20,766 nt of DNA from a virus. Taxonomy: Duplodnaviria > Heunggongvirae > Uroviricota > Caudoviricetes. The notes beneath the pieces are model-generated. The model was not told the DNA's origin and did no database searches. It saw only the letters and a program-made list of their open reading frames with translations. Both the position numbers and the translations under genes were made by a program. The stretch's first letter is position 1, and each line of letters starts with the position of its first letter. Shown in pieces: positions 1,045-1,165 of the stretch. The DNA lies in IMG/VR virus record IMGVR_UViG_2600254997_000022; one strand, 5' to 3'.

Positions 1045-1165
1045 GTTGGTTCAGTTGGTTCAGTTGGTTCAATTTGTAAAGAGTATTGTTTTTAAAAGGA
1101 TTATTCGCAAAAAGTGAACCAACACACCCCATTTTTGAACCAACAAAAAGAGGCCGTGAACCAAC
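1045..1165. repeat. iteron array A: three tandem GTTGGTTCA plus three inverted TGAACCAAC copies phased 21 bp apart
   Basis: Perfect tandem 9-mers at 1045-1053, 1054-1062, 1063-1071; inverted copies at 1115-1123, 1136-1144, 1157-1165 (spacing exactly 21 bp). The module is ~75% identical, in inverted orientation, to 10873-10974. Confidence 0.75.

Follow-up and report, generated by a model that had tools for sequence, protein, structure and literature searches.

Why does a satellite island carry its iteron module twice, once directly after the gene of its replication protein and once more, in inverted orientation, almost 10 kb away? This question is raised by the window, i.e. the whole stretch of DNA analysed here, 20,766 bases in length. 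The copy next to the gene is called module B and the distant one module A. On balance we lean towards the view that module A forms the distal part of a bipartite, mirror-image origin system in a PICI/P4-type satellite, that is, an auxiliary, crr-like second origin or initiator-binding array.

Repeat anatomy of the two modules

The two modules, and a short motif close to module B, are located as follows.

1045..1165: module A, putative distal origin copy; three abutting GTTGGTTCA copies (1045-1071), spacer (1072-1114) and three inverted copies
10873..10974: module B, putative proximal origin; three spaced iterons, AT-rich spacer (10914-10956) and two abutting inverted iterons (10957-10974)
10833..10843, minus strand: CCTGGCTGGCA motif, about 30 bp inside module B; central between the halves in relatives with contiguous modules

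The 9-mer GTTGGTTCA occurs 11 times in the 20,766 bases; in 100 shuffles the mean was 0.14 and the maximum 1, and none reached 11. All 11 copies are identical and confined to modules A and B, with none elsewhere in the window. In module A three abutting copies lie on the plus strand (1045, 1054 and 1063) and three on the minus strand (1115, 1136 and 1157) at a spacing of exactly 21 bp. The 43-bp spacer between the two sets (1072-1114) is 77% A+T, compared with a window average of 52%. In module B the three plus-strand copies (10873, 10894 and 10905) are 21 and 11 bp apart; they are followed by a 43-bp spacer, 84% A+T against the same average of 52%, and by two abutting minus-strand copies (10957 and 10966). 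Opposed iteron sets thus surround an AT-rich region in both A (3+3) and B (3+2). The first-pass annotation had described three tandem and three helically phased (21 bp) 9-mers, which is correct for A and does not hold for B with its two tandem and three spaced copies. We add that the phased copies of A are opposite in orientation to the tandem ones; each module is therefore quasi-palindromic.

The inverted second copy noticed at first reading is real: in the alignment module A is the reverse complement of B, at a distance of about 9.7-9.8 kb. The tandem-plus-spacer parts are 95-96% complementary over 28-39 nt (pairs I1 and I3) and the spaced-iteron parts 74-75% (pairs I2 and I4), and every 9-mer is nonetheless intact. 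The identity of about 75% reported earlier is a fair overall figure.

The 11-mer CCTGGCTGGCA is found twice in the window on the minus strand, where 0 copies are expected, at 10833-10843 and at 1438-1448, the latter about 270 bp inside module A. The copy at 1438-1448 was considered as part of a direct repeat flanking the DNA between the modules, but there is no extended similarity around it and we treat it as a coincidence. The other split loci that were checked have no consistent second copy.

The island and its genes

1..20766 contains, besides the modules, the following features that are needed to understand the island.

19513..20766, minus strand: gene of a tyrosine integrase, at the island's far end
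16178-16265 and 16328-16407, minus strand: C4 antisense RNA and isrK (Rfam), a pair of immunity RNAs of P4 type within the island's regulatory zone
721..1008, minus strand: gene of a PerC-family regulator, start codon 37 bp outside the tandem iterons of module A
316-327: possible att core ATTATGTACACC, a 12-bp repeat at the left end
5919..7229, plus strand: IS629 (IS3 family), within a large ejection-protein gene; not part of the origin system

Several E. coli genomes have a chromosomal island between dinD and yicC with which the window aligns collinearly at 98-99% identity; the sole difference is the IS629 insertion at 5919-7229. It is a PICI/P4-type satellite island of about 20 kb adjoining dinD. 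When the whole window was compared with deposited phages and plasmids, no close match was seen except IS629 and a 12-kb circle. The search for att sites gave only the 12-bp ATTATGTACACC, present at the left end (316-327) and again past int in locus L001, so the ends of the island are approximate.

Starting from the integrase end, the order is tyrosine integrase, a small helix-turn-helix protein, AntA/B, DUF4222, Ash, small ORFs, a 919-aa protein, module B, gp14, gp7, gp20, a gp16-like gene, a 232-aa protein, module A and PerC. In the cited sections on Gram-negative PICIs the layout is int, regulator, 'Bro zone', primase, ori and 'late'/accessory zone, and PerC alleles are carried by some E. 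coli PICIs (PMC6092414; PMC10111431). The gene order of the window matches the Gram-negative PICI satellite layout as published in those sections.

The C4 antisense RNA (81 bits) and isrK (57 bits, both Rfam) are situated within or beside the ash gene. The island thus has a pair of immunity RNAs of P4 type, and its replication protein resembles that of P4 only in part. IS629 contains an ALIL frameshift pseudoknot at 6254-6370 and disrupts the gp16-like lytic transglycosylase ejection gene, which is uninterrupted (906 aa) in CP025840 and similar relatives.

Probes built from the element in the window gave matches in 576 of the 5,426 complete E. coli genomes. One of the family members, in E. coli ABU 83972 (NC_017631.1, L080), lies beside the vat island and has an ejection cassette and modules 8.3 kb apart. 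The 12-kb circle is NZ_CP148430.1 (L002), a 12,152-bp circular record whose primase, PerC and integrase are 99% identical to those of the window. It lacks the ejection genes and has two 3+3 modules 1.8 kb apart. Deposited as a complete circular 'plasmid', the record comes from E. coli isolated from a chicken. It probably represents the satellite in its excised and replicating state, and a circle with both modules fits a working replicon, which is an indirect hint of autonomous replication.

The primase-helicase and iteron specificity

11000..13759, minus strand: primase-helicase (Pri-Rep), 919 aa, with Zn-ribbon, Toprim, DUF927 (Pfam; PHROG) and a putative C-terminal DNA-binding domain
11069..11086, minus strand: codons for aa 892-897 (RKSPRI), predicted specificity element; changes with the iteron sequence

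DUF927 is recognized in the 919-aa protein with a Pfam E-value of 3.5e-47. The helicase part (aa 403-814) is homologous to SaPI Rep 8tch (phmmer E=1e-11) and to SCCmec Cch 5dgk, and the protein has the features of an initiator of the self-loading SaPI Rep/Cch (DUF927) helicase family. P4 alpha matches it in tblastn only in the N-terminal primase part (aa 8-362, 32.6% identity). The last iteron of module B (10966-10974) is 25 bp from the stop codon of the gene (11000-11002). Among about 60 homologous loci, taken from one-per-species genomes with full-length homologues, a module lies directly 3' of the gene in nearly all. In the window, the position immediately 3' of pri-rep is occupied by module B and not by A.

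Iteron cores differ between lineages, and seven were seen: GAACCAAC, GAGACAAC, TAACCCGT, GAACCGAC, TACCCGAC, TAACCCAC and TTATCCCA. The C-terminal motifs of the proteins that go with five of them are listed below.

GAACCAAC: GRGYQRKSPRI
GAGACAAC: GRGYQGRV-RE
TAACCCGT: DRYKRKALKRI
GAACCGAC: KGVTRKTLRI
TACCCGAC: KGITKKTLVH

Across the roughly 60 relatives the iteron sequence co-varies with a C-terminal stretch of six residues (aa 892-897). Overall identity between proteins of the GAACCAAC group and those of the GAGACAAC group is about 80%, and 5/6 fixed differences fall at aa 892-897. In the structural model these residues are placed in a beta-hairpin after two helices of the C-terminal domain. 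Because the iterons change together with aa 892-897, we infer that the primase-helicase reads the iterons, presumably by binding through its C-terminal domain. It is very probable that module A is a cognate binding array for the primase-helicase of the island.

In Yersinia pekkanenii (L034) there are three direct copies of a double origin module within 6 kb (8154-8421, 12736-13003 and 13917-14214). An ORF at 13228-13890 codes for a protein of 220 aa that is annotated as HNH endonuclease and carries a copy of the primase C-terminal domain; its own origin copy follows. This protein may be an iteron-targeted nuclease.

The second module in related elements

At least 41 of the 52 GTDB loci possess a second module, a trait of the family. 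The two modules are contiguous in about 27 genome loci, where they measure about 260-320 bp in all, and in about 25 loci (14 genome loci and further IMG/VR loci) they are split by 0.06-10.3 kb of variable cargo. The contiguous form begins with tandem iterons, an AT-rich spacer, spaced iterons and a central CTGGCTGGCA(G) motif, and continues with more spaced iterons, a second spacer and tandem iterons. In lineages with other iteron types the contiguous pairs have the new type in both halves. No second module was found within the flank of about 10 kb in 11 of the 52 loci, a result that counts against the second-module model; since the distal module of the window itself sits 9.8 kb out, these loci are not scored as negative.

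Tandem arrays face outward in all 24 scorable loci with two separable modules, which are 64 bp to 10.3 kb apart, and a direct arrangement of the two modules was seen in none of the 24. When distal modules from 13 split loci of different genera are compared, iteron columns are 88.7% identical and inter-iteron columns 62.1%; the values for proximal modules are 97.1% and 59.4%. These figures indicate that distal iterons are under constraint, somewhat weaker than that on the proximal ones. Some distal modules contain decayed iterons. It is important to note that every split distal module seen is of the commonest iteron type, and co-variation is therefore demonstrated for contiguous pairs only.

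The cargo slot between the modules

1166..10872: cargo ('late/accessory') slot; P22-like gp14 (DUF2824), gp7, gp20, gp16-like gene, 232-aa protein and small ORFs

The gp16-like lytic transglycosylase gene of this slot is the one broken by IS629. P22-type ejection proteins are found in the slot of the window and of two relatives (L003 and L032), tape-measure proteins in four (L013, L019, L027 and L055), 600-aa SLT transglycosylases in two (L021 and L060) and P2 gpV-type spike and hub proteins in two more (L035 and L038). Defence genes occur as well, namely SoFic in L021 and a PD-Lambda-2 component in L060. The slot, taken as 3763-10246 of the window and its counterpart in nine relatives, repeatedly holds DNA-delivery proteins matched to different helper types. 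PADLOC gave no match for the 232-aa cargo protein of the window, and Pfam gave none for the ORF adjoining module A (1233-1637) or for the orf146-type proteins described below.

In hundreds of E. coli genomes similarity to the window spans PerC and module A and ends at the inner edge of the module (1145-1167 of the window). The window and the circular relative L002, which have primases 99% identical, differ wholly in their cargo.

A conserved gene of 146-153 aa (orf146 type) is encoded on the opposite strand just inside the distal module, for example at 7903-8343 in L002 and 19152-19613 in L060. It is also present in L019, L021, L027, L061 and L081. Tandem operator-like repeats of its own, (C/T)GTAAGACA, are located upstream of it. 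In relatives with contiguous modules the orf146-type gene is found at the far end of the cargo. The corresponding place inside module A of the window (1166-1700) shows no more than a degenerate region.

Orphan distal modules

Two lineages carry a distal module without the matching initiator. E. coli EA13 (NZ_CP069712.1, L081) has the same dinD insertion site, PerC, an intact 3+3 GTTGGTTCA module (14346-14466) and an orf146-type gene. Its Rep has DUF5906 (P4 alpha-like); the first 350 aa or so are 86% identical to the protein of the window and the rest differs. As the identity stops there, the helicase, the C-terminal domain and the proximal origin must have been swapped as a block. The iterons of this Rep are of the GGTGGTACAGGT type and form two inverted clusters (21329-21443 and 22446-22552) about 1 kb apart, one of them directly after the gene. 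This DUF5906 case shows that the two-cluster inverted origin recurs with a different initiator. The EA13 arrangement is found at no less than 80% coverage in at least 66 complete E. coli genomes. In Serratia oryzae (L057), TTATCCCA iterons follow the gene and a GAACCAAC-type distal module is located 5.8 kb away.

These orphans in the EA13 and L057 lineages demonstrate that a distal module can persist without a cognate initiator in cis, and replication in the EA13 type and in L057 cannot depend on it. Module A may thus not always be required, since the orphans argue against an absolute requirement. They favour a role as relic or linker, or use in trans.

Proposed role of module A

The role that we propose for module A builds on the repeat anatomy, the conservation and the co-variation with protein described above. 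Both modules would be arrays of 9-bp sites for the winged-helix-like C-terminal domain of the 919-aa primase-helicase. Module B would be the canonical PICI-type origin, where the self-loading helicase would melt the AT-rich stretch between the opposed iterons. Module A, a complete inverted second copy with 3+3 iterons around its AT-rich (77%) core, would act either as another loading site or as an auxiliary element in cis, similar to P4 crr/ori, and a multimeric initiator could bring A together with B. The DNA between the two halves would be the variable cargo slot, and the inverted orientation would protect the cargo from deletion by recombination between the copies. Note that such an orientation is expected of any long-lived duplicate that flanks useful genes, because direct repeats would delete the cargo. 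We put forward tentatively that module A contributes to replication, be it as one more site of loading or as an auxiliary of the crr kind looped to B.

An extended form of this idea, in which a large family of satellites would use the mirror-image pair as a functional design, seems to us improbable. Two opposed initiator-loading sites would bracket the cargo, and the cargo would be replicated first or over-replicated on induction; or else the distal copy would be a portable origin, replicated in trans by the Rep of a co-resident satellite ('origin piracy'). Origin piracy would explain the intact orphan modules beside non-cognate Reps.

PICI-type satellites are common and move virulence regulators, defence genes and phage structural genes. 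If the two-module origin is true, it would explain at which site, and in what way, these islands acquire and swap cargo, and it offers a simple sequence landmark that delimits the cargo slot in genomes. It would also give a tractable test of initiator specificity, as a stretch of six residues appears to set the 9-bp site. Even a dispensable module A would be of use, as a sign that satellites have recombined with one another.

Alternative explanations

The main rival to a two-part origin is that module A is a recombination relic or linker, i.e. a duplicated copy of the origin that has no role in replication and is either recent or carried along with the PerC end. Its effect would be conserved homology at the edge of the slot, with cargo and replication modules being shuffled between co-resident satellites. 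We consider this rather unlikely. In its favour, orphan GAACCAAC modules stand beside non-cognate Reps in two independent lineages, and the EA13 Rep keeps its first 350 or so residues (86%) while helicase, C-terminal domain and proximal origin are exchanged in one block. The loss of similarity at the inner edge of module A (1145-1167) in hundreds of E. coli genomes, the wholly different cargo of the window and L002 with their 99% identical primases, and the decay of some distal iterons point in the same direction. Against it, distal iteron columns are conserved across genera much better than the spacers (88.7% vs 62.1%). The three spaced 9-mers of A are intact although the DNA between them is only about 74% like that of B, for which conversion alone is insufficient. 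Moreover, the outward geometry is invariant (24/24 loci), and both halves of contiguous double modules switch iteron type.

Could module A be an operator rather than part of an origin? In that case the initiator or another protein bound there would control the outer gene, perC, and the divergent inner one. The tandem iterons are indeed 37 bp from the perC start, and in many lineages, among them some whose iterons are of another type, the DNA next to the outer tandem array is a conserved TTTTGCTTATATA stretch. A scan for promoters and terminators around module A (850-1350) found nothing, and in particular no sigma-70-like promoter on either strand. In several relatives perC comes directly after the proximal module and not the distal one, and the inner neighbour, the orf146-type gene, has separate GTAAGACA operator repeats. 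Regulation as the function of the module is in our opinion quite improbable.

Still more doubtful is a switch that would invert or excise the 9.7-kb cargo through recombination between the two oppositely oriented modules. About 65 bp of inverted sequence at 95% identity would be a substrate for it, and the similarity of A and B spacers within one element (the window; L002) hints at occasional exchange between the copies. We searched with a synthetic junction in which PerC, the tandem iterons and the spacer were joined to the B-side spaced iterons and the interior. The predicted junction was present in 0 of the 576 matching E. coli genomes, where coverage was at most 64%, which corresponds to the parental B side; the native A junction, used as control, was found at ≥80% coverage in 48 genomes. 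Cargo and minus-strand orf146-type genes point the same way in every split locus, there is no invertase gene, and inverted repeats are unable to delete the segment they enclose. With 0 of 576 junctions, a working control in 48 genomes and constant cargo orientation, the ALTERNATIVES of the first-pass annotation, inversion or deletion of the 9.8 kb, is not supported.

That the modules are terminal inverted repeats of an unrelated inserted mobile element, a generic end as had also been considered, can be practically dismissed: inverted copies do bracket a 9.7-kb block of foreign-looking genes, but the modules are contiguous and without cargo directly after the primase gene in about 27 relatives, they co-vary with the C-terminus of the primase encoded by that adjacent gene, and the only transposase in the segment is that of IS629, which has its own ends.

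Comparison with known systems

Phage P4 requires both of its clusters, ori and crr, in cis for replication. In the P4 GenBank record crr (4291-4590) lies next to alpha (4636-6969) and ori (9086-9809) about 4.7 kb away; crr consists of two direct 120-bp repeats with five type-1 repeats each, and ori has six type-1 repeats. P4 and the window share two clusters of one iteron kilobases apart, one of them directly 3' of the replication gene, and this gene-adjacent cluster is crr in P4 and module B in the window. Both have a primase-helicase initiator with a homologous N-terminal primase (32.6%) and a C-terminal origin-binding domain, the latter predicted for the window, and both have a C4/isrK-type immunity RNA and Ash. 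The differences are equally clear. The helicase of alpha (D5/DUF5906) and its C-terminal domain are not those of the window, and the iteron sequence is different, the P4 type I iteron TGTTCACC having 0 matches in the window. In P4 crr is made of direct repeats and ori has another internal layout, whereas the clusters of the window are inverted copies of each other. Because alpha matches aa 8-362 only, the helicase is of the DUF927 type, TGTTCACC is absent and the clusters are inverted copies, the window is not a member of the P4 system. The resemblance to the P4 ori/crr arrangement noted at first reading stands for the two-cluster layout, the iteron arrays and the position of one array 3' of the gene, and falls for P4 membership. 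The likeness is one of layout, and 'works like P4' can be said by analogy only.

The PICI/SaPI replicon, pri-rep followed by ori, was reportedly described by Ubeda, Penades and Novick. The window has in common with it a DUF927 initiator-helicase, an origin 3' of the gene, opposed iterons and an AT-rich core. The island order (int, regulators, pri, ori, accessory/late genes) is also shared, and PerC is found in some E. coli PICIs. SaPI Rep binds with its C-terminal winged-helix domain to 6-12 iterons directly after the rep gene, and half of these lie on each side of an AT-rich centre in opposite directions (PMC9371898). In PICI/SaPI a C-terminal winged-helix-type domain sets iteron specificity, and for the window we infer its equivalent. 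By homology and layout module B is, as judged from its sequence, a PICI/SaPI-type origin (Fillol-Salom et al. 2018, PMC6092414; Qiao et al. 2022, PMC9371898). In EcCICFT073 cloned pri and the adjacent origin sufficed for plasmid maintenance (PMC6092414), which counts against a role of module A. The tRNA-Thr/vat region of CFT073 (L139) was examined for an island of the kind described here and contains none, the vat island adjoining tRNA-Thr; the link to the tested EcCICFT073 replicon is therefore one of family and layout level only.

The window also departs from PICI/SaPI in its fusion of primase and helicase, with a primase part that resembles P4 alpha. A variable accessory hot spot adjacent to pri is described for PICIs in the cited part of the Tai paper (PMC11364771), and a 'Late zone' of Gram-negative PICIs in that of PMC10111431. 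As far as these parts go, the hot spot and 'Late zone' resemble the window in having a variable slot downstream of primase and origin with phage late and defence genes; bracketing by two origin modules, present in the window, is not mentioned in them (PMC11364771, PMC10111431). No description of a mirror-image second origin bracketing an accessory slot came up in the portions of the PICI literature consulted or in full-text literature searches. Unlike described PICI origins, the window has a second module 9.7 kb away with accessory genes between. PICI/SaPI origins are described as a single module, to which the family of the window adds a mirror-imaged second one, complete or partial. Against the literature covered here, a mirror-image second module with a cargo slot between the two halves appears to be an unreported trait of a known origin type.
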